From an uncultured virus (IMG/VR IMGVR_UViG_3300044712_001838) (Duplodnaviria; Heunggongvirae; Uroviricota; Caudoviricetes): a stretch of 64,000 bases of DNA. Within the stretch, counting starts at the first letter, position 1, and every line of letters begins with the position of its first letter. The DNA lies in IMG/VR virus record IMGVR_UViG_3300044712_001838. The stretch is one strand, 5' to 3'. Shown here one piece after another: positions 33,377 through 62,978 of the stretch. The notes under the pieces were generated by a model. The model saw only the letters and a program-made list of their open reading frames with translations, made no database searches and was not told the DNA's origin. The translations under genes were made by a program, and so were the position numbers.

Positions 33377-33566
33377 CTAGGTTGAGTCAGACATATGTTG
33401 TTCCTCCTCTCTGCTATACTCGACTGCTCCTAACGGAGACCTAACGTACATGGCACTGGCAATAACCGGGCGGCGCGCGGGCGGGATACCTGGTGGCGAC
33501 CTGGCTTCCCCTGGGTGGGACCGTGGGCTATGGGGCATTAGCGAGTGTCATAGGGAGAGGCAGGAG

Positions 33567-33592
33567 ACAAAGAAGGGGCGCAAGTGCGCCCC
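33567..33592 (-). terminator. intrinsic terminator candidate
   Basis: GGGGCGCA/TGCGCCCC hairpin followed by TTCTTTGT on the minus strand. Confidence 0.5.
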
Positions 33593-33619
33593 GAGTGTCA
33601 ACCAGCCCCTCCAAGCTGG

Positions 33620-33868
33620 CTATAGCTTTGTTATCGTTACCTTGTACGTCTCGATGACCGCGCCTTCGTCAAGATACATCTCGTGCGCGCTGGCGGCGTC
33701 GTCGGAATCTTCAAAGTTCTTGGCTTTCAGTACGTCGGGTGTCAGCGTCTCGCTCCGGTAGCCTTGACTGTATTCAAAGTCTTCCAAGAATCCAGCGGGT
33801 TGAGCAGAGCAAGTTCCCGAGTCTTTCGTTCCGTTCGGCAGGCGGATGACTGTTAGGGTTCGTACCAT
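33620..33868 (-). CDS. hypothetical protein (array gene)
   Basis: Motif plus GGGAG RBS upstream. Confidence 0.75.
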   Translation of the reverse strand: MVRTLTVIRLPNGTKDSGTCSAQPAGFLEDFEYSQGYRSETLTPDVLKAKNFEDSDDAASAHEMYLDEGAVIETYKVTITKL

Positions 33869-33902
33869 GATCGTTGTCTCCCTCTGTCTTGCTCGCCTGC
33901 TC

Positions 33903-34079
33903 CTAACGGGAGCCTAACTTCGCCGTAATCAGTTGCCGCATGGTGTTCTTGGTGTCAGAGCGCAGGACGCCTTCGCCGTCGCCTGTTCGGGAGTACCAGC
34001 GGATGCCGGAACTGTTACGGTCAGCGGGGAAGATGTCGAAGCCCTTGTATCGCCATGCTTTAGGTTCTGTCTGGTTCAT
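33903..34079 (-). CDS. hypothetical protein (array gene)
   Basis: Motif plus GGAGG RBS; stop inside next motif. Confidence 0.7.
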   Translation of the reverse strand: MNQTEPKAWRYKGFDIFPADRNSSGIRWYSRTGDGEGVLRSDTKNTMRQLITAKLGSR

Positions 34080-34305
34080 TGTCGCCTCCTGCAAGAGTCG
34101 CCTGCTCCTAATGCTACCCTAAGAGGCTTTGCACTTTAAGCGGAGAATCCATGTCGCCTGCTGAACTTGGGGCGAATCTTGGGCGCGGGCGGTTTGCTGT
34201 AGGTCGCGGGCTGGCGTTCGGGGAGTGTCATGGGGCAGGCGTTGAGTAGCCGCAACATGTCGGGGCGAGCAGGCGACGCGATCAGCATTGCGGCGCGGAT
34301 TGCGG

Positions 34306-34665
34306 TTAGCATGGTGTCAGAACCTCGCTTTCGGTCGGGACCGATTCGCCGATGGGGAAACCATTGCGGGACAGTTTCCAGAACAAACGCTCCGCGCTGC
34401 TGCCTTCAACGGCGTAGTTGAATTCGCCGCGCTGGCAGTCAGTAACGGTAAATCCGAGCATGCGCAAGTTCTGCGCCGTCAGTTCGGGTGCCTTGAAGAA
34501 GATGGCGAACTGAGAGCCGCGCTTGCTGCGTGGGAAAAGGCGCGTCGCCTTCTTGCCCGTTTCTTCGGTGTACTTCTTGCAGAAGGCGGGTTGATCGGCG
34601 GGATGGACATCGACTTGGAGATTGAGATGGGTTGCTTTTTTCATTGCTTCGGCGGAGCTATCCAT
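34306..34665 (-). CDS. hypothetical protein (array gene)
   Basis: Motif plus GAGG RBS. Confidence 0.75.
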   Translation of the reverse strand: MDSSAEAMKKATHLNLQVDVHPADQPAFCKKYTEETGKKATRLFPRSKRGSQFAIFFKAPELTAQNLRMLGFTVTDCQRGEFNYAVEGSSAERLFWKLSRNGFPIGESVPTESEVLTPC

Positions 34666-34711
34666 GATTCAGTCCTCTTTTCTGTTAAGGTAGACTGCTC
34701 CTAATGGGAAC

Positions 34712-35068
34712 CTAAGACGGGAAGCACTGGCTGTTGCCTTCGAGCATGAGCTTGAGGGCGTTCGCGCTGTCCTGCTTGGTCCAGCCGAGTTCCTTCAAAG
34801 CGTCCGCGAGAGCCATTGCTTCGTCGACCAGTTTGAGTGCCTTCTGTTTGTTGGTCCAGTCGGGCGGGAAAGGCGTCATTTCATCGCGCGTCTGGATGTC
34901 GAAGTCTTTGAAGCGGTTGAGCATTGCCGCATAGACTTGGGCAAAGGTTCTCGGGTTCTCCGGCGAGCGAATCGGATCGCTGCCTGTCTTGCCGTCGTCA
35001 GTCCGGAATTCGATACGAGTGTCGTAGAGTGTCAGGAAGACGAACGGGCGTTTAGCGGCTGTTGGCAT
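34712..35068 (-). CDS. hypothetical protein (array gene)
   Basis: Motif plus GAGGAG RBS; stop inside next motif. Confidence 0.75.
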   Translation of the reverse strand: MPTAAKRPFVFLTLYDTRIEFRTDDGKTGSDPIRSPENPRTFAQVYAAMLNRFKDFDIQTRDEMTPFPPDWTNKQKALKLVDEAMALADALKELGWTKQDSANALKLMLEGNSQCFPS

Positions 35069-35119
35069 GATGTTTCTCCTCTGTCTTGCTCGCCTGCTCC
35101 TAATGGGAGCCTAATGGGG

Positions 35120-35350
35120 CTAGAAAGCCCCAAGGAAAGCTCTGATGTCTACGCATTCGGCGGAATCTTGTGGGATGTCATCAGCGAGTGTCTTTATCTC
35201 GCTTTGTTCGGCTGGCGTTAAGTCGGTCTGCTTGTCAACCAACTTGCGCAATGCGCTTTTAAGCGCGGGATTCAAGACTTCTGCTTCGGTAATTTCAAGC
35301 CAATCGGCGGCGAAACGGACTAGAGTGTCTGAAACGATAGGTGTAGGCAT
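35120..35350 (-). CDS. hypothetical protein (array gene)
   Basis: Motif plus GAGGG RBS. Confidence 0.7.
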   Translation of the reverse strand: MPTPIVSDTLVRFAADWLEITEAEVLNPALKSALRKLVDKQTDLTPAEQSEIKTLADDIPQDSAECVDIRAFLGAF

Positions 35351-35411
35351 TTTATCCCTCTCTTTCATAAGGGACGCCTGCTCCTAATGCTGCCCTAATG
35401 GGGCTTGCACT

Positions 35412-35672
35412 TTAATATTCGATTCGGACAGCCTTTACAGGAGAGATTCTCCAGCCTTTGCTACGAAGGCGACGCAATGCGCCTAGCGCGCTCCAAGCAT
35501 TATCATCTTGCGAGCTTACTGCTGCGCGCCAATCTGTCTGAAACCGTTTGCGTTCCGAGTTGTCGTGATTGACTTGGAGTGTCAGAACGCGGACGCTGGC
35601 GAGTTCCGGATTGAATGAGTTTTTGCTGCGCTTGTTGGTGTCGCCTTCGTACAGCAGATTAGCGATAAACAT
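35412..35672 (-). CDS. hypothetical protein (array gene)
   Basis: Motif plus GGAGG RBS. Confidence 0.7.
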   Translation of the reverse strand: MFIANLLYEGDTNKRSKNSFNPELASVRVLTLQVNHDNSERKRFQTDWRAAVSSQDDNAWSALGALRRLRSKGWRISPVKAVRIEY

Positions 35673-35733
35673 TGTAGCCTCCCTTTGTACTATAGGCGAC
35701 TGCTCCTAATGTTACCCTAACCTAGATTGCACT

Positions 35734-36102
35734 TTACTTGCTGGCGACGGGTTCGACCTTGACGCGGATCTCGCCTTTCTTACCCGCGCCGAGAGCTTTG
35801 AAGCCAGCGGGTGTCAAGTCGATGATGACGCCGCGAGCGGTCGGCTTTTTGCCGGGACCGAAGTCGTTGAGGCGGACTTCGATAGTCTTGCCGTTTTCGA
35901 GGTTTGTTACCTTGATCTTTTTGCCCCATTCGCGGGAGCGCATGGCGCAAGTCAAGGCGGACTCGTCAAACTTCTCGCCGTTTGCGGTGAAGACTCCGCT
36001 GGTGCCTTCGCGCTGGCAGGACTTTGTCGTATAGTACGTTGCCAGACCTTCAGCGGCGAAAGCGGGTATGGCGAGGAAAGCGAGCAGGATGATTGTTTTC
36101 AT
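35734..36102 (-). CDS. RlpA-like double-psi beta-barrel (lytic transglycosylase family) secreted protein
   Basis: Signal peptide, GLATYY, TANGEKFD...LTCA, KVTNLENGKTIEVRLNDFGP, IIDLT. Confidence 0.88.
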   Translation of the reverse strand: MKTIILLAFLAIPAFAAEGLATYYTTKSCQREGTSGVFTANGEKFDESALTCAMRSREWGKKIKVTNLENGKTIEVRLNDFGPGKKPTARGVIIDLTPAGFKALGAGKKGEIRVKVEPVASK

Positions 36103-36130
36103 GGTATGGTAGACTGCTCCTAATGGGAAC

Positions 36131-36412
36131 CTAATGCTTTTTGCACTCAGCCCTTCTTGCGCAAATTTCCTTTGCCTTGCTGTACGCCGAGCCGCGCGGG
36201 ACGCCGTCCAGAACTGAGCAGGCGACGTAGAAAGTGCCATCGGTCCAGATGAGGCGTTCCTTCGAGACATGGTCCCAAGTTGGCGATTCCTGTTCATTGG
36301 AGAGGACGCGAACAAGGTTAAACGCCATCTTCATGGCTTGGCGATGGTTACTTACTGGAATGTTGTCGGCGACTTGTCCGTTGATTCGACCGACTTCTAC
36401 GATATGTTTCAT
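36131..36412 (-). CDS. hypothetical protein (array gene)
   Basis: Motif plus GGGAG RBS; stop inside next motif. Confidence 0.75.
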   Translation of the reverse strand: MKHIVEVGRINGQVADNIPVSNHRQAMKMAFNLVRVLSNEQESPTWDHVSKERLIWTDGTFYVACSVLDGVPRGSAYSKAKEICARRAECKKH

Positions 36413-36453
36413 GGTGTTTTCTCCCTGTTAGGTCGCCTGCTCCTAACGGAAGG

Positions 36454-36678
36454 CTAATACGGATTGCACTTGGAGGCGACTCGCGCCCCAAGGACGATGA
36501 TCTCGTATCCGAACCAGTAGCAAATGTCTCCGGCGATGAAAAAGGCTTTGCTGCGGACAGGCTTGTCGATGGTTACGTACTTGTTGAAACAGTAGTTTCC
36601 CGCGAGAATGAGCCGCCTGAACAGTGCAAGAGAGTTGTTAAAGATGAAGTTTGCCAAAAGCTCGCGGATCTTACGCAT
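36454..36678 (-). CDS. hypothetical protein (array gene)
   Basis: AGGAG RBS; stop inside next motif. Confidence 0.65.
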   Translation of the reverse strand: MRKIRELLANFIFNNSLALFRRLILAGNYCFNKYVTIDKPVRSKAFFIAGDICYWFGYEIIVLGARVASKCNPY

Positions 36679-36688
36679 GGCATTGCTC

Positions 36689-36943
36689 CTAGTTAGCGGG
36701 GAAGTCGTAGCGTGCCGGATCGTTGTCGTAGCCTTTGGGGCATATCCGGTAGGTGTCAAAATCGGCGCGCGTTGCGGGGCGCATTTTGCTCTTGTCCATT
36801 GGGACCGGAGCAGAGCCGTCTTTCCAAGTGTAAATAGAGCCGCGAATTACGGAAGTCGCGAGAATCCAAACGTCGTTCGGTAATTGGGGCAGGATGTAGC
36901 CGAAAAGGTTTTCATCGCAAACAACGAATCGGATCTTGTCCAT
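36689..36943 (-). CDS. hypothetical protein (array gene)
   Basis: Motif plus GGGAG RBS. Confidence 0.75.
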   Translation of the reverse strand: MDKIRFVVCDENLFGYILPQLPNDVWILATSVIRGSIYTWKDGSAPVPMDKSKMRPATRADFDTYRICPKGYDNDPARYDFPAN

Positions 36944-36982
36944 GATTGTCTCCCGCTAGAGTCGCCTGCTCCTAATGGCGAC

Positions 36983-37360
36983 CTAACGTATTTGCACTTT
37001 CGGGAGCGGGCTTCCCGTCGCCTGATGATAGACGATTCGCGGGTAGGCTTTGCCGGAGTTGTTGACGGCGCGAGACTGAATCTCAACCCAACCGCGCTCG
37101 ATGCCGCGCTCAACTTCGCTTGCCTCTGCTTTGGTCGCTTCGCGGATTGTCGGGACTGGTCCGGGAAAGGTTCGATGCAGCTTCAGTTCATTGGTGTCTT
37201 TGCGGAACTCGTAGCTGCCGCCGCCTGCGACAAGGACGCCGACAATAGCATGTCCGGGCTGGAATTTGGTCGGATCTTCGCTGAGTGTCATCCAGTTGGC
37301 GATGATTTCGTCGGCTGTTGTCCCAAGGGACGGCGGGACATAGGGTTTCTTTTCCGGCAT
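36983..37360 (-). CDS. hypothetical protein (array gene)
   Basis: Motif plus GGAGGG RBS; stop inside next motif. Confidence 0.75.
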   Translation of the reverse strand: MPEKKPYVPPSLGTTADEIIANWMTLSEDPTKFQPGHAIVGVLVAGGGSYEFRKDTNELKLHRTFPGPVPTIREATKAEASEVERGIERGWVEIQSRAVNNSGKAYPRIVYHQATGSPLPKVQIR

Positions 37361-37416
37361 GATTTGCCCTCCGAATCAGTCGCCTGCTCCTAATGCCGTC
37401 CTAACGGAGTTTGCAC

Positions 37417-37674
37417 TCAGTCGGCGATGAACTTGCGAGGCGCGACCGCCTTGACGGTCTTCTCGGTCTTGTTCGGGTTCTTGAGCATAACGGTCAGGCG
37501 GAACTCGATGCCGTTGCGCGTCTGATGCGCCGAAACGAATGCTCGGGCGCGCATCTTGCCCTGCGTAATGACGCCGTCTTTGCGCTCATGGGCGGGAGAG
37601 ACAACGTCAATGCAGGCGATTTCGTTGGAGCGGGTAGTCAGGACGGATTCGTCGACGACGATCTCTTGTCTCAT
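37417..37674 (-). CDS. hypothetical protein (array gene)
   Basis: GGGAG RBS. Confidence 0.65.
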   Translation of the reverse strand: MRQEIVVDESVLTTRSNEIACIDVVSPAHERKDGVITQGKMRARAFVSAHQTRNGIEFRLTVMLKNPNKTEKTVKAVAPRKFIAD

Positions 37675-37687
37675 GGTGTCAACTCCC

Positions 37688-37930
37688 TTAGCTGATTGCA
37701 TTGCCCGCGATCAAGTAGGCGTCTACAGTCGCCTGTAACGGATGAACGAGTTTAGGCTTGACCAGCGGGAACTGTCTGCTGCGATCTTTTGCATGAAAGT
37801 CGCGAGTGTTAATCGCGGATTCTTTGGACTTTGAAACGAAGACTGTAACCCAAGCCGCTTTGGTGTCAGAAACCTTTTGGTAGAGCTTTACGGCGTAAAG
37901 GTCTTTTCTGCAAACCAATGGATGCGGCAT
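37688..37930 (-). CDS. hypothetical protein (array gene)
   Basis: Motif plus GAGGG RBS. Confidence 0.7.
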   Translation of the reverse strand: MPHPLVCRKDLYAVKLYQKVSDTKAAWVTVFVSKSKESAINTRDFHAKDRSRQFPLVKPKLVHPLQATVDAYLIAGNAIS

Positions 37931-37971
37931 GATGTTTCCCTCTGTCTTGCTCGCCTGCTCCTAATGCCGCC

Positions 37972-38160
37972 CTAACAGGCGGGAACAACCTTTTGGCAGG
38001 CGTCGGGCTTGACGTTGAATTTCCTGCTGCCGTCGAAGACGGTTACGGTCTTATTGGCGTTGAAGTCGCGGACCGTCGCGAGAAACGATAGTCCGGCGAA
38101 AGTCGCCATAACGAGTTGACCGTAGCGGAAGGGCTTTGCTTGCGTTTCGGGCTGATGCAT
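37972..38160 (-). CDS. hypothetical protein (array gene)
   Basis: Motif plus GGAG RBS; stop inside next motif. Confidence 0.7.
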   Translation of the reverse strand: MHQPETQAKPFRYGQLVMATFAGLSFLATVRDFNANKTVTVFDGSRKFNVKPDACQKVVPAC

Positions 38161-38476
38161 GGTAATCTCCGATGGTTGTTCTGATACTTACATAGGCTGC
38201 TCCTAATGGAAACCTAATTTCCATAGGACTGACACCGAAAAATCGGCGTTTTTCGCCCGGCGACCAGGTCACGCCCAGGTCACAGCCAGGTTCGGGGCAT
38301 GGGTTTTACGAGTGCAAGATTGATTTGGGTTTTGTTAGGAGCAGGCGACGGTCGCATGGGAACAACAGCATTCGCCTTTTTACTATTCTCGAATCTGGCT
38401 CTGGTCATTTGGAACAGCCGCGAGACACCATCTTACGGCAGAATCAAAGCGATCAGGCGGTTCAGAAAGGCAAAAC

Positions 38477-38959
38477 ATGCGGTCTAAAATCGCAATCGGC
38501 AAACTGGACGAAGTTACCGAACCGAGGACAGGGAAAAAGACAATCGTTGTCCGTGTTCCCGAAGGCACTCCCGGCAATTGGATCTCGTTTTTCGTCGGCA
38601 ATACCAACATGGTCAGAGACGAGCAGATCCATCCATCGCGGGGCGGCGGGCATGTTACCGATCCGTTCGTCCTGTGTCAGTATGACCCGCAGGATCAGTT
38701 CGCCTACATCGTCCCGCTCCCGAGTGTTTTTGTCGCCAGCGAGTTTCGTTGCACCCGCAACAAGCCGTATGTCGGCAACTGTCCGGGCGCGAAAGACCAT
38801 TCGGCGCGGCAGGGATACTACATCGTCGCCTTCAGCGCAGACGAAGCGATAAAGCAGATGGAAGCGAAGTTCCCCGACGAGCCGGAAGGCTTTACCGCGA
38901 AGTTCTGGAAATACGCGGATCGTCGTCCCGAGACGGTTCGCTACGAGCCTCTGTGCTAG
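38477..38959 (+). CDS. hypothetical protein (array gene)
   Basis: AAGG RBS, 160 aa. Confidence 0.75.
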   Translation: MRSKIAIGKLDEVTEPRTGKKTIVVRVPEGTPGNWISFFVGNTNMVRDEQIHPSRGGGHVTDPFVLCQYDPQDQFAYIVPLPSVFVASEFRCTRNKPYVGNCPGAKDHSARQGYYIVAFSADEAIKQMEAKFPDEPEGFTAKFWKYADRRPETVRYEPLC

Positions 38960-39012
38960 GCGCGTTCGGGTTCCGTTAGGAGCAGGCGACAGCATTGAAG
39001 CGAGGCATAAAC

Positions 39013-39393
39013 ATGCAATACGGATGCTACGCAATCGAAGTAACAGAGAAGGGACCGAGGATTAGCCATTTCGCGGAAAACGCCGATAATGTCGGACAGG
39101 CGTTTCGGAAAGCGGCGGCAGAGCATCCAAATTGCGCGTTGAACATTGGCGATACGGAAATGATAACACTTCCTTGCGCCGTCGCCTTCGCGGTTGAGGG
39201 CAAGCGATACGTCCAGATGTTTAACGCCGACGAGGGAGACGAAGCGGCGCGGGATTATGTCCTTGAGAAAGTCGTCAACTTCTACAACTTGTTGATTGCG
39301 CATTGCGCTGCAAAGCGGGTTGACTGCGTCGCGCTCATAACGAAGGAAGGCGCGAGCTTGAGCATCGAGGGCGGAGCGATGGCGATGTTTTAA
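39013..39393 (+). CDS. hypothetical protein (array gene)
   Basis: Motif plus GAGG RBS. Confidence 0.75.
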   Translation: MQYGCYAIEVTEKGPRISHFAENADNVGQAFRKAAAEHPNCALNIGDTEMITLPCAVAFAVEGKRYVQMFNADEGDEAARDYVLEKVVNFYNLLIAHCAAKRVDCVALITKEGASLSIEGGAMAMF

Positions 39394-39432
39394 CGCCGAC
39401 GCAAAACGCCGACAAGTGCAAGAGAGGGAGCC

Positions 39433-39612
39433 ATGAAAACAGGCGACAAGGTTCTATTTGGCACCGAAAAGGAGGAAGGCGTCGTCGCCATCGAGGGCAC
39501 GGGGGAGAAGCTGAAAGCCAAAGCTGTCTTTCATGGGTTCAACATCATCGTCGAAGGCTACGAGGACGAGGTTCTTGGAGTCCTTGAACAGATTTTCAAA
39601 CCCAAGGCGTAG
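39433..39612 (+). CDS. hypothetical protein (59 aa, not in ORF track)
   Basis: GAGGGAG RBS; MKTGDKVLFGTEKEEG... Confidence 0.7.
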   Translation: MKTGDKVLFGTEKEEGVVAIEGTGEKLKAKAVFHGFNIIVEGYEDEVLGVLEQIFKPKA

Positions 39613-39671
39613 AGTGTCAAGGTTGTTAGGCTTCCATTAGGAGCAGTCGCTCATATTGGAGGGAACAAATC

Positions 39672-40061
39672 ATGCCGCTAACAATCTGCGAGAACCCGAA
39701 TCCGAGCATTGAAGAAGTAGCCGCGACACTGTTAGGCAATATCGGCGCGTACTTGGAAACGAAGGAATACGAATCCGAGCCGCGCAAGATGACGCCTTCA
39801 AGGGCGGCGGCGATTGAACGGACGATTTTCTCCGATCCGCTTGACACCTTCAAGTTCTTTACGGATGCTGAGTCGGTTGTCCGCCAGACGAAGGATCAGA
39901 ACTGGATAATTACGATCAAGACCATGAGCCGCAAGAACATTGACGACAAGAAGTATCAATGGCGTTCGTTGCGGCTGGACCGGATGAAACTTGACACCGT
40001 TTTGGTCAACGCTGGCAGCAAGGGCAAGGTCCGCGTCTTCCCCAACGTCGCGGCAAGCTGA
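39672..40061 (+). CDS. hypothetical protein (array gene)
   Basis: Motif plus GGAGGG RBS. Confidence 0.75.
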   Translation: MPLTICENPNPSIEEVAATLLGNIGAYLETKEYESEPRKMTPSRAAAIERTIFSDPLDTFKFFTDAESVVRQTKDQNWIITIKTMSRKNIDDKKYQWRSLRLDRMKLDTVLVNAGSKGKVRVFPNVAAS

Positions 40062-40274
40062 GGGAAAACCGATGAGCAGTCTGCAAGAGACTTTGAAATC
40101 GGTTCGCCCGAGCAATCGGTGCTTTAGCTGCGGCAAGTTACTAAACCCGAAAAAGAAGTACAGATGGCACTATGCTCCGTCGAAATCGTCTAGGACGGCA
40201 ATCGTATTCGTCGCCTTCTGTTGTCATTAGGCTTCTGTTAGGAGCAGGCGACTGTAGCATGGGAGGATAAACCC

Positions 40275-40475
40275 ATGAGCAAAGCCCTTAAACTTCTTGA
40301 CGGACTTTTGGCTGTTGGACTTGCTTCACCGCATTTTCCGCATAAGATTAGCGATGCAATTAGCATTGTCGAAGATGCTTATGCACGGCATGAATTAACA
40401 CTCCGCCAGACCGTCGCGCTGGATAAGGCGTTGCTGATTTTGGCAAAACGCCGACGAGAGTGTCAACCGTCTTAG
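40275..40475 (+). CDS. hypothetical protein (array gene)
   Basis: Motif plus GGAGG RBS; stop inside next motif. Confidence 0.7.
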   Translation: MSKALKLLDGLLAVGLASPHFPHKISDAISIVEDAYARHELTLRQTVALDKALLILAKRRRECQPS

Positions 40476-55759: not shown

Positions 55760-56287
55760 ATGCCCCAAACGAAATATACGGTCAAAGTTCTGAAGACCTT
55801 CCGAGGACGGGAGGGCGAGGGATTTAACGCAACGTTGCTCCGCGACGGCGTCCCCGTTGCCGACGTTGACGACGAGGCATCCGGCGGCGGTTTCCATTAC
55901 AATTGGCGCGACTGGAACAAGACCCCGCGAACGTTCGAGCGCGACTTCCGCGCCTTCATCGATGCGCTGCCGCCCGAGAAGATCGGCGCGGATGCGCCGG
56001 AATGGGAGAAATCCCTGTACCCGAACGGCGAGCGCAAGGTCGAAGCTGACTGCTTCATCGATGATTTGGTCAACGAATACCAGATCGCCAAGAGCATCAA
56101 GCGCGCTTGCAGTAAGAAAATCTGCTTCGTTCTCAAGACGCATAAGAAAGGCGAGTACGGTACGTTCAAGGTCGTCTTCTCGCCAGCGGCGAAGGCGCAG
56201 ATCCTCCAGAAGTACCCCGACGCGCAGATCCTCAACGAGCATGCGGACAATCCGGCGAAGCTCATGGAACTGCTGAAGCTCGGATAA
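55760..56287 (+). CDS. hypothetical protein (array gene)
   Basis: Motif plus AAGGAGG RBS. Confidence 0.8.
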   Translation: MPQTKYTVKVLKTFRGREGEGFNATLLRDGVPVADVDDEASGGGFHYNWRDWNKTPRTFERDFRAFIDALPPEKIGADAPEWEKSLYPNGERKVEADCFIDDLVNEYQIAKSIKRACSKKICFVLKTHKKGEYGTFKVVFSPAAKAQILQKYPDAQILNEHADNPAKLMELLKLG

Positions 56288-56303
56288 ATTTCGCAAAATT
56301 CAC

Positions 56304-56332
56304 TTGCTTTTCGGAAACCGCTCCTGTACTAT
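56304..56332 (+). promoter_or_regulatory. sigma70-like promoter
   Basis: TTGCTT-N17-TACTAT in front of a non-coding structured region. Confidence 0.55.
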
Positions 56333-56338
56333 ATGTTC

Positions 56339-56516
56339 TCTTAAGTACGGGAGCCGTTCCCCAAAGTAGAACGGCTGGTCGACAGGGCGTACAAATGGTG
56401 CCGATCCCTACAATGATCGGAGAACATTGGGAGGCGCAAAGTCCGACAACTGCGATTAAATACCGCGCCTTCCATCGAACCGCCCTTAGCTACCCCGCTA
56501 GGGGCGGTTTCGTTTG
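56339..56516 (+). ncRNA. candidate multi-hairpin ncRNA (~175 nt)
   Basis: AGCCGTTC/GAACGGCT, CCGATC/GATCGG, GGAGGCGC/GCGCCTTCC, terminal AACCGCCC/GGGCGGTT plus T-rich tail. Confidence 0.6.
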
Positions 56517-56676
56517 CGTCGCCTGATTGACCAGGCTGCGCCGCCCGGCAGCCGTTCGAGCGAGCAAGTGTCATGAGAGAAATGACACTAACGCCGACCG
56601 GGTTGACTCCGGCGTGGTCCGCCTTGACTCCGCCAAAAACGCCGTTAGGCTTGCGTTAGGAGCAGGCGGATAAAGC

Positions 56677-57024
56677 ATGGATACGAAAAACCACCTTTGG
56701 GAGCAAGAGTTTGGGGCGGAATACGCTATCCCCCAAGAGATCCTTGACCTCCATGCAGCCGACAAACTGTTTGATTACTCTTGGCATAATGACATTCGAC
56801 CTTCGTTCGGTCGCAACAACGAAAAGGGAGAGGTTCGCCTTTGGGTCGATCATCCCGACCCGAAAGAGCGCGAGGTAGGACCAGACGGAAAACGCTTCTC
56901 TGTCGTCTTCTATCCGGATGAGGGCGGCGCGGATACGGCGATTGACACCGACCGAGTCATCGAGGCAATCGAAGTCTTCAGAGTCGAAATCCTGCGCCGA
57001 CTCGGCATCGATTGGAACTCTTAG
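56677..57024 (+). CDS. hypothetical protein (leaderless array gene)
   Basis: ATG at +21; DYSWHND..PSF; stop inside next motif. Confidence 0.75.
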   Translation: MDTKNHLWEQEFGAEYAIPQEILDLHAADKLFDYSWHNDIRPSFGRNNEKGEVRLWVDHPDPKEREVGPDGKRFSVVFYPDEGGADTAIDTDRVIEAIEVFRVEILRRLGIDWNS

Positions 57025-57052
57025 GCTTCTGTTAGGAGCAGGCGACTCTACC

Positions 57053-57271
57053 ATGAGCAAACCAACCGCAAAACCCGACTTTGAAGTTAACGACATGGGG
57101 ACAGTCGTTTCCATCACCCCCATGAACAAGGACGCCCAAAAGCATCTGATGGGCAACGTCAAGACGGAATCATGGCAATGGATGGGACCGTCGCTGTGCG
57201 TCGACCATCGCTATGCCGAACCAATCATCGCCAACGTCCAAGAAGAAGGCTTCACAGTTTCGCAAGGTTAG
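57053..57271 (+). CDS. hypothetical protein (leaderless array gene)
   Basis: ATG at +21. Confidence 0.75.
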   Translation: MSKPTAKPDFEVNDMGTVVSITPMNKDAQKHLMGNVKTESWQWMGPSLCVDHRYAEPIIANVQEEGFTVSQG

Positions 57272-57280
57272 GGGAACAAC

Positions 57281-57514
57281 ATGAAAACCAGACAGATCGA
57301 AATGCTCCGGTGTTGGGGCGACCATACATGGGATACCGACTTTACGGAAATCCCCGCTAACACTCCCGAAGGCGACATCGACCGCGTCGCCATCGACGGG
57401 CATACGTCCGAGATTTTCAAGGCAAACCCCAAACGGGACCTTGTGCAGACAACGGTGTACCATATCCCCGAGATCGAAGAGGAAGAGCCTGTCGGCTTGC
57501 TTGGAGCGAATTAG
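57281..57514 (+). CDS. hypothetical protein
   Basis: AGGGG RBS; stop inside next motif. Confidence 0.7.
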   Translation: MKTRQIEMLRCWGDHTWDTDFTEIPANTPEGDIDRVAIDGHTSEIFKANPKRDLVQTTVYHIPEIEEEEPVGLLGAN

Positions 57515-57555
57515 GCTCCCGTTAGGAGCAGGCGCGTAAAGCAGGAGGAAGAACG

Positions 57556-58281
57556 ATGCGAATTTATGACAAGGGTCGCCCGACTGAGGGCTGGATGTTC
57601 GGGGAACTGGTCTCCAAGCTGGAAGACATGGCTGTCGGGGACATCCTGATCAAAATCTGCCACCAGTTCAAGGCTCAGAATTTAATCAAGATCGTTCCTC
57701 TGCCCAAAGATCATCCCGCGCCGGAAGGCATTCGCTATTGCGTATACGTCAAGCCAGACGGGACGCCGACTGGCGAGCCGGAAATGTGCATTCATGAATG
57801 GGAGCCGCATGACGGCTGCAACCTCGACGGGAAGCACTTTTTCCGGGCTATCCGTATTTCCAAAGCCCGCCAGGCTCGCGAACATCGCCTTCTGCCCAAT
57901 GGCATGACCCCTCGTTGGATGCACATTTACGACAATGGCGGCGAGTCTGCCGACCGCTTCACAGTCGTCTTTACGGGGCGTTACGCGTCGCGCGAGCGGC
58001 AATGCGACTACATCGGCATGGGTGCCGGACCCTTCCACCCTCAAGGTGTCTGCCAGCATGGACAGGCGGACCGTGTCATTGACTACCCGAGTTACGGACA
58101 TCTCGGCAAGAAGATCAGCTTCCATGAACTGAACGAGGACTGCCAAATCGTCGCCCTCCGGGATTACCTGTACCTTTGGGATCTCGTTGACTGCCCCGCT
58201 GGCGATAACAATGTCGCCTACTTTGTCGGGCAAATGAAGATCAAGGCGAAGTTTGCACTTGCGAAGGAGGTTCCGGTCTGA
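57556..58281 (+). CDS. hypothetical two-domain protein (array gene)
   Basis: Motif plus AGGAGG RBS; IYDNGG..ADRFTVV...HLGKKI. Confidence 0.8.
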   Translation: MRIYDKGRPTEGWMFGELVSKLEDMAVGDILIKICHQFKAQNLIKIVPLPKDHPAPEGIRYCVYVKPDGTPTGEPEMCIHEWEPHDGCNLDGKHFFRAIRISKARQAREHRLLPNGMTPRWMHIYDNGGESADRFTVVFTGRYASRERQCDYIGMGAGPFHPQGVCQHGQADRVIDYPSYGHLGKKISFHELNEDCQIVALRDYLYLWDLVDCPAGDNNVAYFVGQMKIKAKFALAKEVPV

Positions 58282-58754
58282 TGGACCTACGGGCGGTTAA
58301 ATCTCTCGCAAGACAGTTAATGAATCTGCATGGCTTACAGGCATGGGAGTTCGCATTCGACCATGCCTTCCGGCGATTCGGATGCTGTCATTACAGGAAG
58401 CAAAAGATAACACTTTCGCGCCGACTCGCCAGCCTGAACAACGAGAACCAGGTCAAAGACACAATTCTCCATGAGATTGCCCACGCAATAACCTTCCTCA
58501 AAGACAACCAACGCGGGCATGGGCGGCATTGGCGGGCGCGATGCAGGGAAGTCGGCTGCAATCCGCAACGCTGCTACAATAGCGACACGGTTGCTGCCCC
58601 AAAGAGCAAATGGTCATTAGTCTGCCCCAAATGCGGTCATACGGTTACCCGACACCGAATCCGCAAGAAACTCGCTTGCTCCCGCTGCTGCAACACCTAC
58701 TCAGGCGGTAAGTGGGATGCCAGGTTCGTTTTCGTGAAAACGCCGAACCGATAA
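58281..58754 (+). CDS. SprT-like zinc metalloprotease domain protein
   Basis: RFGCC...ITLS, DTILHEIAHA, GHGRHW, C-terminal CPKC...CSRC. Confidence 0.88.
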   Translation: MDLRAVKSLARQLMNLHGLQAWEFAFDHAFRRFGCCHYRKQKITLSRRLASLNNENQVKDTILHEIAHAITFLKDNQRGHGRHWRARCREVGCNPQRCYNSDTVAAPKSKWSLVCPKCGHTVTRHRIRKKLACSRCCNTYSGGKWDARFVFVKTPNR

Positions 58755-58832
58755 AACGCCGACCAAGAGTGCAACGCCTATTAGGACTCCGTTAGGAGCA
58801 GGCGACTCTGTTGGGACAAGGAGACATAAGAC

Positions 58833-59312
58833 ATGTGCTGCTGCGGAAAACCGACAATGAATGGCGAACGTGGGTACAAATGGCAACCCGACGATGAGCC
58901 AAGCATCTATCCCATCAACCCGCCGGCGGTTGCGGAAGGCGATGTCGTGCTCTACGACGAGCCCGGACGCTGCGGGGGGCTTGACGCTCATAGCCATCAT
59001 TACCGCGTCGTCAAGCACTACAGTAGCATTTTTCTCTACGTCCAGCATGGCGGGGGGAAGGAAGAGTTCCGCCTCAGTACGACGCCTGCCTTCATGGCAA
59101 TGCTTGCCGCGCTTGACACCAATGCCCGCTACTGGATGCTGAGTCTCATCTATCACGCCCATTCAGACGGCGAGCGCAAGGGAAGCGGCGAAACGCAAGA
59201 TCGCTGGTCGCGGGCGGCTGCTGAAAAGCGAATCAAGACCCGCAAGTACCGCAACAGCAACGATGTCAAAGTCTGGATCGAAGATCCGCCCGTCGCCTGC
59301 AAGGCGGTTTAG
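58833..59312 (+). CDS. hypothetical protein (array gene)
   Basis: Motif plus AAGGAG RBS; stop inside next motif. Confidence 0.75.
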   Translation: MCCCGKPTMNGERGYKWQPDDEPSIYPINPPAVAEGDVVLYDEPGRCGGLDAHSHHYRVVKHYSSIFLYVQHGGGKEEFRLSTTPAFMAMLAALDTNARYWMLSLIYHAHSDGERKGSGETQDRWSRAAAEKRIKTRKYRNSNDVKVWIEDPPVACKAV

Positions 59313-59340
59313 GACTCCGTTAGGAGCAGGCGACAGTAGC

Positions 59341-59567
59341 GAAGGAGGAAACAGCATGCGTTACATGGGTAACGCGCTGTAATGTTTTCCGCCCCGCAAG
59401 GGGTTCTTCTCCAGAAGCCTAGTGCTGAGTCGAGAAGAGTAGGACAGACGGATTACGGGGACGGATCGGAATCTTCCGGCAATCGCAGACCCCCTCTATC
59501 CCCGTCGCCTGCGGACGCATGACGAATTAGCGGCTCTACCCTTGGGGCAAACTCAAGGAGAGCAGAC
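59341..59567 (+). ncRNA. structured 5' leader with 8-codon micro-ORF
   Basis: Starts at inferred +1; GGAGG-led MRYMGNAL* (59356-59382) inside a GCGTTAC/GTAACGC hairpin; further stems TCTTCTC/GAGAAGA, ACGGGGA/TCCCCGT, CCTTG/CAAGG. Confidence 0.5.
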
Positions 59568-60543
59568 ATGAAGCGCAAATGGCAGTTCTTTGTTAACACT
59601 TGGATCGGCGCCAATACGTACGGCATTCGGTTCAATGGTGCCCGCCGCAACGGCAAAGGTCGCTGGCTCACAGGCGACGAATTGCCCGAGAAGGTTCGCA
59701 AGTTCTTCTGCATCGAAAAGCAGACATCGTCTTGGACCATGCCCGACTACAAGACGCTGCAAGAGTTGCGGGAGAAGGCGCATAACTGTACCTTCCAGAA
59801 GCGCAACCCCTGCTACGGATGGTGCGCGATTGACGAACCGAAGTTGACACTCCCTCCCAAGATCGAAGTTGACCTTGCTAAGCTGCGGGAAACCCTTCGC
59901 GAGATGAACGAGGGGCGCAACATGAAACGCTACGGTAAGGAATGGGTGGGCAGATTCTTTTGCGGCGAAAGAGAATTTCTGCTGACGCCCGCGACGAAAA
60001 AATGGGTCAAGACCCATCGTTGCACTTGCGGGAAGCGGCATCGGGTAACGTGGAAAGAAGAAGACCGCTGCTATGGCGGATGCTTCGATATCCTCTCATT
60101 CGGTTGGAAGGACGCAGACCTTGACCCTGAAGGTTGCACCGGAATCGACAAGCTTCTCGATATCCAGGGAAAGCGCGTCGCCTTCCAGGTCAGTGGTCAC
60201 AAAGTCCTCTGCGATCCGACGTACGAGTTCGAGTACCAGTTCTTCGTACTCCGAGGTTGCTCACTCCATCGTCTGCGACTGCGGGTGCGACGGCAGTTGG
60301 GAAGGCGACGACTGGTGTCTATCCTTTACTGAGATCCTGATGGTTCCGGTCGTTCACAAGAACAACGTCGTTGACTACGAGAAGACGGCAAAACGCATCA
60401 TTGCTGCAAGTTGTAAGGCAATCAAGCCTTACGAGCAGATGTGGAGCGACGCTTCGGAGAATATGAACAACCTGTATAAAGAACTTTATGAGAAGTATAA
60501 GAAACTTTCTGACGAAGGCAAGTTGCCCGAGACTGAGGATTAG
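59568..60543 (+). CDS. hypothetical protein apparently split by a +1 frameshift near 60240
   Basis: Frame 59568-60332 turns Arg-rich after EYQF; overlapping frame continues SYSEVAHSIVCDCGC and stops inside the next motif. Confidence 0.6.
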
Positions 60544-60585
60544 GGTTCTATTAGGAGCAGGCGACCATATCGAAAGGGGAACGAC

Positions 60586-60996
60586 ATGAAGACTGCATTG
60601 ATCCTTTTGGTCCTGGTCGCCTGCTTTGACGGATATGCGTACGAGAAGTACGTGACCCCTCCCGAGGAACAGGCGCGGTGGGATAACCAACCGAACCCGC
60701 TCGATACGATCATCGAAGGCAATGACGCCAAGAAGCGGGCAGAAGCCGCCAAGAACGGTCTCTGGCTGCCGACAATGGCACATTGCGCGGTCGGCGGAGC
60801 GACGCTGCTCTACATCGGCATCTTTTGGGGCATCATCCCGCTGTTCTGTATGCTGATGACGCGATGGACGGGGCTGTTCGGACTCGTTTTTCTGGTTTGT
60901 TGGGTCGTCTTCGCAGTCAACCGGATTGACGAGTTCCTATGCCTGTTCGTCGTCCTGCCCTTCATGGGTCTCCGGACAATGTTCGGAAAACGTTAA
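60586..60996 (+). CDS. membrane protein with signal peptide
   Basis: Motif plus AGGGG RBS; N-terminal signal and three TM segments. Confidence 0.75.
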   Translation: MKTALILLVLVACFDGYAYEKYVTPPEEQARWDNQPNPLDTIIEGNDAKKRAEAAKNGLWLPTMAHCAVGGATLLYIGIFWGIIPLFCMLMTRWTGLFGLVFLVCWVVFAVNRIDEFLCLFVVLPFMGLRTMFGKR

Positions 60997-61065
60997 TTTT
61001 CTGAAAAATTCCTCAAGTCGCGAGGCAAGAATGACGATTCTGAGAAGCAAAGGAGGCAACAACTG

Positions 61066-61461
61066 ATGCTTTTCAACGTTATTCTTCGCTTCGATGGCAC
61101 TGCCAACGTCCCATATCCCCCATGGGCGGAACTAGAAGGCGTCGAAGGCGTCGAAGGCATCGCTGAGCCAACCGAGAGAACCTTCTCGGCAATCCTTGAC
61201 AAGACGGAGTTGGCGATGCTGCTCCACCAGTATCGCCTTCTCCGGCTTGAAAAGAAGCTAACCCAATGGTCCATTAAACTCTCTTGCGCCTTTCCCGATC
61301 TCAAAATCGAAGCGTTCGTTACCCCGTTCTTCGCAGACAAGGACGGTCGGCGCTTGACTGACCGGAACTGGCGACGGGTCCGGCGAGCGTTCGAGCGCTT
61401 CGTTACATCGATCGCCGTCGAGTTCATCCAAGAGCAACTCATCTCCAAAGCCCAGGCTTGA
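61066..61461 (+). CDS. hypothetical protein
   Basis: AAGGAGG RBS. Confidence 0.75.
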   Translation: MLFNVILRFDGTANVPYPPWAELEGVEGVEGIAEPTERTFSAILDKTELAMLLHQYRLLRLEKKLTQWSIKLSCAFPDLKIEAFVTPFFADKDGRRLTDRNWRRVRRAFERFVTSIAVEFIQEQLISKAQA

Positions 61462-61486
61462 TCTCATCTTCATAAGTCCAAGTGCG

Positions 61487-61512
61487 AAGCCGCCCTCGAA
61501 GGCGGCTTTTTT
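61487..61512 (+). terminator. intrinsic terminator
   Basis: AAGCCGCC-N6-GGCGGCTT plus T-run. Confidence 0.8.
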
Positions 61513-61749
61513 GTTAAAAAAAGTGGTGAGATGAGTGGTGAGATCCTGGTGACCGGGTGGTGATCTCATCTTCTCCGGTGTCATGTTGATTGTAGCACCG
61601 GAACAACCTGATAGGCTGCCGGGCGGCGCAGTTCTACATAGTCGACCGAGCAGGCGGCGTCCGGCATTAGGCTTTTATTAGGAGCAGGCGACCTTTCCGT
61701 GCGCAATGGAGCGCAAAGAGATTTCAACCCCATACGGAGGAAAGCCAAG

Positions 61750-62073
61750 ATGTCCAGCACGAAGAAGCCCGCCGCAAAGAAGTCCAAGGTCGTCGAGAGT
61801 CTGGAACTCTCTCAGCCCCAGCAGGAGTTGCTCGCCCAGGCTGGCTCGGGCGCCAAGCTCGAAGCTTGGAAGGGCGAGGACAAGAAGTTCATCGTCTTCT
61901 GCGGGGCGCGCAAGTTCGAGCACGGCACGTTCAACCAGATTGCCAAGAAGGGTCTGGTCGAGAAGGCGCAGGTTCGCGCGCCGAAGCGCGGTTGGACCTA
62001 CCGCCTGTCCGCCAAGGGCGCGCAGATCGTCTCCAAGTACATCAACGCGGTTCCGTCGCCTGTAAACGCCTAG
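61750..62073 (+). CDS. basic winged-helix-like protein
   Basis: GGAGG RBS; TFNQIAKKGLVEK...YRLSAKG. Confidence 0.65.
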   Translation: MSSTKKPAAKKSKVVESLELSQPQQELLAQAGSGAKLEAWKGEDKKFIVFCGARKFEHGTFNQIAKKGLVEKAQVRAPKRGWTYRLSAKGAQIVSKYINAVPSPVNA

Positions 62074-62091
62074 CGGCGTCGGGGGCGGTCA

Positions 62092-62131
62092 GAGGGGGCG
62101 GCTCGCGGGAGCCGCTCCCTCATTCTTCTTT
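62092..62131 (+). terminator. intrinsic terminator candidate
   Basis: GAGGGGGCGGCTC/GAGCCGCTCCCTC then ATTCTTCTTT. Confidence 0.55.
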
Positions 62132-62143
62132 GGGAGACAAGCT

Positions 62144-62470
62144 ATGAAATGCCCCAAATGCGGTTGCGAAATTGACACCGAGGACGAGCACAAGTACGAG
62201 CCGTCCAAGGACCAAATTGCGGACTTGCCGCCTTCGATCAAACAGCGATTCCTTCCCTACGACTCATGTACGCCTGCCGGAAAGCCGTACAAGGCTCCGC
62301 CGCGCTTCCTTCAGTACTCAGACGACCATCTCAACGATTGGAACTTTACGCATCCGATCAAAGCCGAAGAGGACGGCTCCGTCTGGATGGTTCGGACATA
62401 CAGCCCTACCTTCAACTCCAAGCGAAACTGCGGCGGCTACGACGTTATCTACTGCCGCAAAACCAAGTAA
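62144..62470 (+). CDS. hypothetical protein
   Basis: GGGAG RBS; MKCPKCG. Confidence 0.7.
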   Translation: MKCPKCGCEIDTEDEHKYEPSKDQIADLPPSIKQRFLPYDSCTPAGKPYKAPPRFLQYSDDHLNDWNFTHPIKAEEDGSVWMVRTYSPTFNSKRNCGGYDVIYCRKTK

Positions 62471-62517
62471 GTGTCAAAAACGCCGTTAGGACTCTGTTAG
62501 GAGCAGGCGAAGAAACC

Positions 62518-62724
62518 ATGAACAGAAACGCGAACCCTCAACTGCTGAATCTCTTGCGCATGGGTTGCAAGGTTGAATTCCCTACCGGAGCATGGCTTCG
62601 GGGAGACAAGGGCTACATCAAAGTCGGCAGCGAGCAACGCGGAGAACTTGGTGCTTGGTCTCTTGACCGCGAGGGGCTTCGCAACGCCATGTCCGACAAG
62701 GACTTGTGGGCAGGTAACGATTGA
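62518..62724 (+). CDS. hypothetical protein (leaderless array gene)
   Basis: ATG at +21. Confidence 0.7.
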   Translation: MNRNANPQLLNLLRMGCKVEFPTGAWLRGDKGYIKVGSEQRGELGAWSLDREGLRNAMSDKDLWAGND

Positions 62725-62731
62725 GGAAGCC

Positions 62732-62932
62732 ATGAAAAACCCGAATTGCGACAACATCCATTGCACCAAAGCCAACGGGGAAGTCCGCTTGCTGCCGACC
62801 GGAGGCGACGGCAATATGATCGTCTGCCGTTCCTGTTACGAGCACGAAATGGCGTTCCGCCGCTCGTTCAGCAAGAGAGGGGTTAAACCCGATCTCCCGA
62901 GTTGGGAGTCGCTCAAAGTCTACGAAGGGTAA
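62732..62932 (+). CDS. small Cys-containing protein
   Basis: GAGG RBS; NPNCD..HC...CRSC. Confidence 0.7.
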   Translation: MKNPNCDNIHCTKANGEVRLLPTGGDGNMIVCRSCYEHEMAFRRSFSKRGVKPDLPSWESLKVYEG

Positions 62933-62978
62933 CAGTGCAACACTTATTAGGCTTCCGTTAGGAGCAGACGAGATAAAC

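Follow-up and report, generated by a model that had tools for sequence, protein, structure and literature searches.

A repeated tandem-box motif as a putative dedicated promoter class in the small-gene array of an uncultured phage

The array and its motif

The 64,000-nucleotide stretch analyzed here (the window) comes from the uncultured Caudoviricetes virus IMGVR_UViG_3300044712_001838 and is part of a 98,710-bp contig of the Joint Genome Institute (JGI). Its left 33 kb holds larger genes typical of big phages, and from 33.4 to 63 kb it carries a divergent array of small open reading frames (ORFs) with 54 copies of the motif TTAGG-N6-TTAGGAGCAG-KCGAC (K, G or T), 13 on the minus strand and 41 on the plus strand. 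Copies are labeled either by the position of the 10-mer core, TTAGGAGCAG (e.g., 54727+), or by the span from the first TTAGG box (box 1) to the predicted transcript start. The query TTAGG-N6-TTAGGAGCAGKCGAC with at most 3 mismatches gave 51 matches (13 minus, 33419 to 38217; 38 plus, 38324 to 62972), and the same query gave none in 100 dinucleotide shuffles. The 10-mer core with at most 1 mismatch gave 57 matches in the window, 54 of them inside the array, which added 43026+, 46258+ (box spacing of 5, not 6), and 54727+ to the 51; the remaining three (20304-, 29712-, and 60429+) have no upstream TTAGG box. The count of about 54 copies and their division between the strands, which an original prediction had made from the letters alone, were thus reproduced, 51 by the full query and 3 by the core. 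In a scan with a weight matrix built from the 54 copies, 53 scored 24.5 to 62 bits and the next best site on either strand of the window only 11.1 bits, indicating that neither a full copy, as already claimed, nor a degenerate one is present in the left 33 kb. The only exact 10-mer core outside the array (20295 to 20304, minus strand; chance expectation estimated at about 0.1) lies without a box 1, antisense within a small ORF (20166 to 20489, plus strand) that has a weak Ogr/Delta-like zinc-finger match (1.4e-4, below the cutoff).

The 10 bases of TTAGGAGCAG are essentially invariant across the copies, and box 1 reads TTAGG in 48 of 54. The six bases between the boxes show a pyrimidine bias only; for the five bases 3' of the core, 23 of 54 copies have GCGAC, and most of the rest fit K-C-G-A-C. 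The starts of the two TTAGG boxes are 11 bp apart in 53 of 54 copies, which agrees with the spacing first proposed. An additional element, AGTG(T)CA, precedes box 1 by 13 nt; 21 of the 54 copies have it at exactly this position and 25 have it within 3 nt, compared to 0.8% of random 21-nt windows. The core, TTAGGAGCAGGCGAC, has a G+C content of 60%. Summed over the columns, the information is about 38 bits from box 1 to KCGAC and 45 bits from -25 to +22, which far exceeds the content of housekeeping promoters.

All array copies are co-oriented with the surrounding ORFs and no ORF reads through any of the 54, so the description of the motif as always intergenic and oriented with the downstream gene holds. 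The upstream ORF stops on a TAG within the motif in 23 of 54 cases (19 in box 1 and 4 in the core) and farther upstream in 29, and two copies have no same-strand upstream ORF at all; the motif has stops built in in two frames. Beyond the motif, the copies share a median run of 3 nt, the N6 spacer and the flanks vary freely, and the 70 array ORFs are not paralogues (one weak pair at E ≤ 1e-3). Since the flanks vary and the genes lack paralogy, the invariant positions indicate selection on a signal and not recent duplication, and an origin of the array by paralogue expansion was rejected. Two distant copies on opposite strands, 50306+ and 36446-, have an entire 26-nt leader in common. Our rough call of 70 ORFs matches the roughly 70 genes predicted to be driven by the motif, but only about 52 have a copy of their own and the rest trail in short operons. 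The several noncoding RNAs predicted alongside them were not borne out: two copies (33433- and 43026+) are without an ORF, and neither stretch has an Rfam match.

A sampled 10 kb is fully contained in two public rhizosphere DNA runs from two studies. Logan contigs built independently from both runs span positions 38001 to 58000 without a listed difference, indicating that the repeats are not an artifact of one assembly. These contigs continue rightward past the window to a further motif-like stretch at about 65.13 to 65.17 kb, and the array is therefore incomplete within the window. Apparent contig joints in this comparison have sides of 21 to 38 nt that consist of repeat sequence matching other copies, and a reading of the joints as rearrangements was rejected because they are repeat self-matches. 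The low cover at 42.0 to 44.7 kb in one run (X2) was not used; a shared repeat unitig of 39 nt is about twice as deep there as the flanks, and the segment is probably present in that run, its contig having been filtered. A second related genome, considered for pieces with 8 differences (depth of 11.7), was dropped; the protein encoded on a 24,076-nt contig and its counterpart in the window are 100% identical, and the contig thus belongs to the same phage.

A fixed start signature and the promoter reading

Of the 54 copies, 49 have a pyrimidine at core+20 and 53 have a purine at core+21, 12 bases after ...GCAG. Among the 37 copies without an ATG at this step, the pyrimidine-purine (Y-R) pair is kept in 31, compared to a background of 0.236 (binomial P = 2e-14), and at neighboring offsets it is never found in more than 18 of the 37. 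An ORF of at least 25 amino acids (aa) lies behind 52 of the 54 copies examined. For 16 of the 52, the ATG falls exactly on core+21 and has no ribosome site; for 29, it lies 11 to 20 nt after the predicted start behind its own GGAG-type site; and the interval of 1 to 10 nt is occupied in one copy only (+7, no ribosome site). With the ATG on the start purine and no ribosome site, the 16 genes are predicted to be leaderless, and the bimodal ATG distance fits one fixed 5' end, followed either by no leader or by the shortest leader that holds a ribosome site.

Core+21 is the predicted transcript start, given the Y-R step and the start-codon offset. Counted from it, KCGAC occupies -11 to -7, TTAGGAGCAG occupies -21 to -12, the first TTAGG occupies -32 to -28, and the optional AGTG(T)CAA lies at about -45 to -39; T/A at -4/-3 is weakly conserved, and from +2 onward nothing is conserved save purine richness. 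Successive elements of these four are separated by about one helical turn, the spacing to be expected if a protein contacts a single face of the duplex. We consider the motif to be probably the promoter of a second, dedicated class in this uncultured phage. The promoter call of the original prediction is well supported at the sequence level by the constant offset of the Y-R step and of 16 start codons. Transcription would start on the purine 12 nt after ...GCAG and 6 nt after KCGAC; about a third of the messages would be leaderless, with AUG at the 5' end, and the others would have leaders of 11 to 20 nt holding only a ribosome site.

Sigma70 promoters have a TTGACA-like -35 box and a TATAAT-like -10 box 16 to 18 bp apart, and sigma54 promoters have the layout GG-N10-GC (-24/-12) with the start about 12 nt after the GC. 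The pattern TTGACA-N16/17-TAnnnT was found seven times in the window (1.0 expected), at 6924, 11525, 18549, 23395, 26047, 26872, and 63406, and represents the "ordinary" promoter class of the phage. At 11525 and 26872, an ORF-opening ATG lies 6 nt after the end of the -10 box, and these promoters would yield leaderless messages; at 6924, 18549, 23395, and 26047, the ATG lies 19 to 22 nt after it and has a ribosome site. The gap from KCGAC to the predicted start, 6 nt, equals the -10-to-start gap of these sigma70-type promoters. KCGAC thus corresponds in position to a -10 box, and this points to a multisubunit polymerase that works with a dedicated specificity factor. The motif itself reads GKCGAC at -12 to -7 and lacks a TTGACA-like box; a sigma70 consensus scan gave 12 sites versus 7.2 expected at 33.4 to 49 kb and 2 versus 5.5 at 49 to 64 kb, none of them at the motif. 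With regard to sigma54, 12 bases separate the GG of box 1 from the GC of the core and 1 base separates the second GG from it, and neither spacing fits. The motif therefore belongs to neither class, as originally proposed, and the ordinary sigma70-type promoters elsewhere in the window argue for a second, dedicated specificity. Two of the ordinary promoters form 41-nt stretches (18541 to 18581 and 23387 to 23427, plus strand) that are 83% identical and of textbook sigma70 type with an extended -10 box (TTGACA-N16-TATGTT and TATCTT, respectively).

Three copies (33433-, 38335+, and 43549+) carry a further sequence layer upstream, a cluster of three or four CCAGG words spaced 10 to 11 nt apart and co-oriented with the copy (Table 1). 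Such clusters number 3 versus 0.025 expected, and CCAGG-N6-CCAGG occurs four times versus 0.09 expected. Each iteron-bearing copy sits after a noncoding gap. These CCAGG arrays are possibly an operator, an enhancer, or an origin-like iteron set on a subset of the promoters. The ORF-less stretch at 43047 to 43540 folds no better than its shuffles (z of -0.2). A strand-specific word, AAACGCCG(A/C), is strongly enriched from 39078 to 63990 on the plus strand and also occurs at 38250 on the minus strand. Its form AAACGCCG(A) has 19 to 26 sense-strand occurrences, in the rightward arm only; AACGCCGAC occurs 11 times versus 0.86 expected, always on the plus strand; and AACGCCG has 26 plus-strand and 2 minus-strand occurrences. 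The AAACGCCG word is found in all three frames and in leaders (four times as the spacer in GGAG-AAACGCCG-ATG), and it often abuts AGTG(T)CAA.

Table 1. Motif copies and other parts of the array. The span of a copy runs from box 1 to the predicted start; "ATG +n" gives the distance of the ATG after the predicted start, and "leaderless" denotes an ATG on the predicted start.
Feature	Position	Strand	Remarks
Leftward arm	33412..38217	-	13 copies, small ORFs
Divergent region, 106 bp, first leftward to first rightward copy	38218..38323	.	three CCAGG iterons
Rightward arm	38324..62979	+	41 copies, small ORFs; array continues beyond window
Three CCAGG iterons, 10-11 nt apart	33489..33514	-	44 nt upstream of box 1 of copy 33412-33444(-)
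Three CCAGG iterons	38264..38290	+	33 nt upstream of box 1 of copy 38324-38356(+)
Four CCAGG iterons	43469..43504	+	33 nt upstream of box 1 of copy 43538-43570(+)
Copy (33433-)	33412..33444	-	no ORF of ≥25 aa behind; then ORF-less stretch with predicted structure, 32730-33412
Copy	33885..33917	-	ATG +17, own GGAG, 82 aa
Copy	34090..34122	-	ATG +11, 58 aa
Copy	34683..34715	-	ATG +18, 119 aa
Copy	35082..35114	-	ATG +14, 118 aa
Copy	35366..35398	-	first in-frame ATG 2 nt before predicted start; second 18 nt on, GGAG-like site
Copy	35688..35720	-	ATG +16, 86 aa
Copy	36102..36134	-	leaderless, 122 aa, RlpA-like DPBB domain
Copy (box 1 TTAGC; 36446-)	36425..36457	-	ATG +13, 93 aa
Copy	36954..36986	-	ATG +11, 84 aa
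Copy	37372..37404	-	ATG +12, 125 aa
Copy	37943..37975	-	ATG +13, 80 aa
First leftward copy (3 mismatches)	38185..38217	-	ATG +25, 62 aa
First rightward copy (box 1 TTTGG; 38335+)	38324..38356	+	leaderless, 43 aa
Copy	38965..38997	+	ATG +16, 126 aa
Copy	39626..39658	+	ATG +14, 129 aa
Copy	40227..40259	+	3-codon ATG on predicted start; real ATG +16, 66 aa
Copy	40472..40504	+	ATG +18, 212 aa
Copy	41157..41189	+	ATG +16, 129 aa
Copy	41606..41638	+	ATG +12, 88 aa
Copy	41913..41945	+	ATG +14, 122 aa
Copy	42488..42520	+	ATG +16, 160 aa
Degenerate copy (29 bits; 43026+)	43015..43047	+	no ORF; hairpin and T-run ~250 nt on, ~43268-43300
Copy (43549+)	43538..43570	+	leaderless, 71 aa; CCAGG iterons upstream
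Copy (core GTAGG...)	44174..44206	+	ATG +13, 79 aa
Copy	44479..44511	+	ATG +12, 148 aa
Copy, top score (62 bits)	45459..45491	+	ATG +14, 151 aa
Variant copy, 5-nt box spacing (46258+)	46247..46279	+	ATG +15, 200 aa
Copy	46893..46925	+	ATG +18, 140 aa
Copy	47406..47438	+	ATG +11, 87 aa
Copy	48151..48183	+	leaderless, 65 aa
Copy	49080..49112	+	leaderless, 51 aa
Copy	49456..49488	+	leaderless, 85 aa
Copy (50306+)	50295..50327	+	ATG +13, 88 aa; leader identical to 36425-36457(-)
Copy	50603..50635	+	leaderless, 96 aa
Copy	50922..50954	+	leaderless, 55 aa
Copy	51441..51473	+	leaderless, 76 aa
Copy	52059..52091	+	ATG +19, 276 aa
Copy	53126..53158	+	leaderless, 52 aa
Copy	53524..53556	+	ATG +13, 109 aa
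Copy	53895..53927	+	leaderless, 149 aa
Copy	54373..54405	+	leaderless, 104 aa
Weakest copy (24.5 bits, no KCGAC; 54727+)	54716..54748	+	exception: ATG 6 nt before predicted start
Copy	54937..54969	+	first long-ORF ATG +46, 86 aa
Copy	55706..55738	+	ATG +22, 175 aa (phrog_17767)
Copy	56645..56677	+	leaderless, 115 aa
Copy	57021..57053	+	leaderless, 72 aa
Copy	57511..57543	+	ATG +13, 241 aa; then SprT-like gene 58281-58754
Copy	58781..58813	+	ATG +20, 159 aa
Copy	59309..59341	+	8-codon mini-ORF behind GGAGG, then ATG +41, 46 aa
Copy	60540..60572	+	ATG +14, 136 aa
Copy (61678+)	61667..61699	+	ATG +7, no ribosome site, 119 aa (start uncertain)
Copy	62486..62518	+	leaderless, 68 aa
Last copy in window	62947..62979	+	leaderless, 126 aa

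Recognition of the motif and alternative explanations

Blocks of small genes behind strong promoters are known from the SPO1 takeover module and the T4 early regions, where these promoters are read by the main sigma factor of the host. The present array is similar in its dense, unknown small genes, nearly each with its own promoter, but its motif is not of the host main-sigma type. T7-like promoters consist of a contiguous high-information block in many near-identical copies with a conserved initiating G run continuous with it. The motif may resemble them in having a high-information block directly upstream of the start, a weakly conserved T/A at -4/-3, and many near-identical copies, but it has Y-R at -1/+1 and no G run, boxes out to -32 and -45, and a sigma70-like layout, and the window ORFs did not include a gene for a single-subunit (T7-like) polymerase. 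Such a single-subunit enzyme is less likely, and a multisubunit, bacterial-type polymerase is the most likely enzyme, given the Y-R start and the 6-nt gap, which mirrors the sigma70-type sites. This polymerase may consist of the host core and a sigma-like or appropriating factor encoded by the phage, or it may be a multisubunit enzyme of the phage itself, of the phiKZ/AR9 virion type; with either, GKCGAC would replace the -10 box and the factor would read the tandem TTAGG boxes as duplex DNA. We infer that the factor is phage encoded. According to PMC5312081, virion polymerases of the AR9/phiKZ type recognize early promoters in which 6 N separate a long, highly conserved element from the start, and early genes are preceded by about 41 such copies (41 in AR9). 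The motif is similar to the early promoters of the jumbo phages phiKZ, AR9, and phiR1-37 described there in its near-invariant element, 6 N, purine start, tens of copies, and non-host consensus, with the block ending at core+14 and the Y-R step and 16 ATGs at core+20/+21. In contrast to those elements, which are AT-rich and single-block, it is G+C-rich, contains two TTAGG direct repeats and an optional third upstream element, and reaches to about -45.

A promoter read by a host alternative sigma factor, for example, of the extracytoplasmic function (ECF) type, with no phage factor involved, is unlikely. ECF-type promoters have two short boxes 16 to 17 bp apart with family-specific -35 and -10 letters, a spacing that TTAGG-N17-CGAC with 6 nt to the start would fit. 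The sigma70-type promoters of the phage also show the same -10-to-start geometry, and no factor gene was found in the window. However, the letters of the motif do not appear to match those of ECF -35 and -10 boxes, no ECF sigma gene was found among the window ORFs, the most conserved block would fall in the spacer, and about 38 bits is far above the content of host regulon motifs. The strict motif (about 17.5 specified bases) gave 4 single, chance-level matches and no regulon in one genome each of 185,579 species and 7 single, chance-level matches in JGI metagenome contigs, in exact scans, which miss degenerate host versions; exact scans of IMG/VR likewise gave single, chance-level matches only (26 and 33 loci). 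The strict motif is thus not multicopy in any of these collections, which speaks against a widespread regulon of host origin. No further copies at up to 2 mismatches were found on five large viral contigs that had one match each. No match was obtained in a megablast search of 12 kb against GenBank phages, an IMG/VR related-locus search with two window proteins found none, a homologous-protein search with a 369-aa protein returned only its own cluster, and tblastn with three proteins against phages gave only distant matches (30 to 45% identity) in unrelated phages. In full-text literature, the 10-mer core matched 71 papers, and the 10 listed of these concern unrelated uses (primers and barcodes).

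A signal at the RNA level, by which read-through transcripts would be cut or translation set up at a fixed distance from the motif, comparable to messages made leaderless by nucleases, has a still lower probability. Terminator-like sites do not exceed the shuffle mean at 33.4 to 49 kb and exceed it modestly at 49 to 64 kb; with few intrinsic terminators between the genes, read-through between units is likely, and a cut at Y-R would also produce messages beginning with AUG. Strong terminator-like hairpins with a T-run were seen in the rightward arm only at 61486 to 61509 and 62092 to 62121 (plus strand). The motif also contains AGGAG, and it has TAGGAGC in common with the consensus of the start-associated sequences (SAS) of cluster K mycobacteriophages, a 13-bp repeat at the position of the ribosome site, 3 to 7 bp before the start codon (PMC3203893). 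Like the SAS of that account (PMC3203893), it is asymmetric, keeps one orientation, lies in the non-structural half, and may contain the upstream stop, but it is 26 to 48 bp long and lies 14 nt or 25 to 33 nt before the start. Its AGGAG is 14 nt from even the nearest class of ATG and 25 to 33 nt from the others, which have their own sites, and its elements repeat at 11 to 13 bp, the period of duplex DNA. There is no conserved hairpin either, as a 5-bp stem (5/5 pairs) is possible in only 11 of 54 copies, with a variable 5' arm and an invariant 3' arm; a hairpin promoter of the N4 type was rejected because the 5' arm varies freely. Moreover, the first copies of the two arms stand back to back, 106 bp apart, with no other promoter between them.

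Operators or "stoperator"-like sites of a phage repressor or silencer are very improbable. Tandem TTAGG boxes one turn apart would suit a dimeric or tandem DNA-binding protein, and the dozens of asymmetric, intergenic sites that all run along transcription recall the L5 stoperators mentioned in PMC3203893. However, a blocking site needs neither a fixed distance to the start codon nor a Y-R step, and the motif is about twice the length of such operators. Least probable of all, and hardly to be expected, is a junction for gene-cassette exchange, integron-like or of the type of the promoter early stem-loops (PeSLs), at which promoter activity would be secondary. Unrelated ORFans do lie between identical junctions with stops in two frames within the motif, and a few promoter-plus-leader modules are shared by distant sites, even across strands (50306+ and 36446-, 26 nt). 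Integron attC arrays have imperfect inverted repeats, a nearby tyrosine-recombinase integrase, and cassettes in one orientation, whereas the present array has direct repeats and no attC-type inverted repeats, is divergent (13 minus and 41 plus), and includes no integrase or recombinase among the 124 ORFs of the window. In T4-type phages, PeSL cassettes are a regulatory module repeated between small, non-essential ORFans in a plastic genome region (PMC2839356; see also PMC4122927), and they mediate such shuffling (PMC2839356). The array likewise repeats one regulatory module between small ORFan genes, but PeSLs combine a sigma70-like promoter with a terminator stem-loop, and the motif has neither a sigma70 consensus nor a conserved stem-loop. 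Homologous recombination between promoters needs no extra function and fits the promoter reading, with recombination between copies as a by-product that may occur. Stoperators and cassette junctions both leave the fixed offset of the start codons and the Y-R step unexplained.

Several observations weigh against a promoter of a dedicated class. The 124 window ORFs (53 and 71 in the two halves) gave no Pfam or PHROG match to a sigma factor or to a domain of an RNA polymerase, consistent with the original prediction, which placed the cognate factor outside the window. An NCBIfam scan of the 79 ORFs of both halves left unnamed by the earlier scans gave no match to a sigma-factor or polymerase model, look-ups of two unnamed proteins behind sigma70-type promoters gave no sigma-like lead, and neither split beta/beta' genes nor other markers of the phiKZ/AR9 phage group were found among the 124 ORFs. 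No relative was found in the collections searched (IMG/VR, JGI contigs, GenBank phages, and 185,579 species), and the public runs with this DNA are two rhizosphere DNA runs, with no RNA run among them. The copies used for the statistics were chosen by their core, which inflates the information of the core. At 54727+, the ATG lies 6 nt upstream of the predicted start; at 61678+, it lies at +7 and has no ribosome site; and two copies have no ORF behind them. The region to be melted, GKCGAC at -12 to -7, is G+C-rich and in this differs from known -10 boxes as well as from the AT-rich phiKZ/AR9 elements, and the AGGAG within the motif may leave room for a role at the RNA level.

A more far-reaching proposal builds on the promoter reading, namely, a self-contained orthogonal transcription system of a new type, with a phage-encoded factor or polymerase, more than 50 units of which a third would be leaderless, a CCAGG layer on three "master" copies, and a portable gene head. 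We regard this as possible but doubtful. The factor would read TTAGG boxes one turn apart together with a G+C-rich "-10" region, and the start would follow exactly 6 nt later. The phased CCAGG iterons on the three "master" copies would be an enhancer or operator layer, and the module, with its two-frame stops, its start point, and in many copies a start codon, would make a portable head for unrelated genes.

Gene content and significance

Pfam matches were obtained for 13 of the 53 ORFs in the left 33 kb. The genes there include those for a CCA-adding enzyme, PspA, CoaB/CoaC-like proteins, an Apyc1-like metallo-beta-lactamase, two radical-SAM/SPASM enzymes, a Clp_N protein, M23 peptidases, and a lipase. 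Of the 71 array ORFs, only 2 pass the Pfam cutoff (an RlpA-like DPBB domain and a SprT-like protein), and 6 have PHROG matches. Neither tRNAs nor Rfam families were found across the window. Virion, replication, and polymerase genes are absent from the window, indicating that the genome is probably much larger and the phage probably a large one. The Apyc1-like gene (9395 to 10255, plus strand) encodes a metallo-beta-lactamase fold of the anti-Pycsar Apyc1 family (Pfam PF23023, 1.4e-31, above the cutoff) and is likely an anti-defense gene. On the strand opposite to its neighbors, a 476-aa ORF (24420 to 25853, minus strand) has a ferritin-like match to the encapsulin cargo EncB (NCBIfam 4e-24, below the curated cutoff; Pfam Rubrerythrin 1e-8). 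Two coding repeat families were also seen: four tandem paralogues of about 140 to 146 aa without a family match (27914 to 29861, plus strand; D2) and long acidic (D/E-rich) low-complexity repeats (1529 to 1903 and 2245 to 2340; D1). Downstream of the last leftward copy, the ORF-less stretch at 32730 to 33412 (minus strand) has three repeats of about 45 nt spaced about 115 to 120 nt apart, and its predicted fold beats 20 of 20 shuffles (z of -3.95) with no Rfam match at E ≤ 1. It is a candidate structured RNA or DNA element bordering the two halves of the genome.

A dedicated promoter class before a block of small early-type genes is a strategy already known; the build and sequence of the present motif match no characterized class. 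The build is unusual in its tandem direct repeats, its G+C-rich opening region, and its fixed start, which would give many leaderless messages, and the motif class coexists with ordinary sigma70-type promoters in one genome. Phage promoters and factors (T7, SP6, phiKZ/AR9, and T4 MotA/AsiA and gp55) have been a source of orthogonal expression tools, and the same systems underlie much of the knowledge of promoter recognition. If the cognate factor is found in the rest of the genome, recognition would be directly testable in vitro. For the phage itself, the motif would mark about 70 ORFan genes as one coregulated, probably early, set, and the array would serve as a shortlist for host-takeover or anti-defense functions in a soil phage lineage without relatives in the collections searched.

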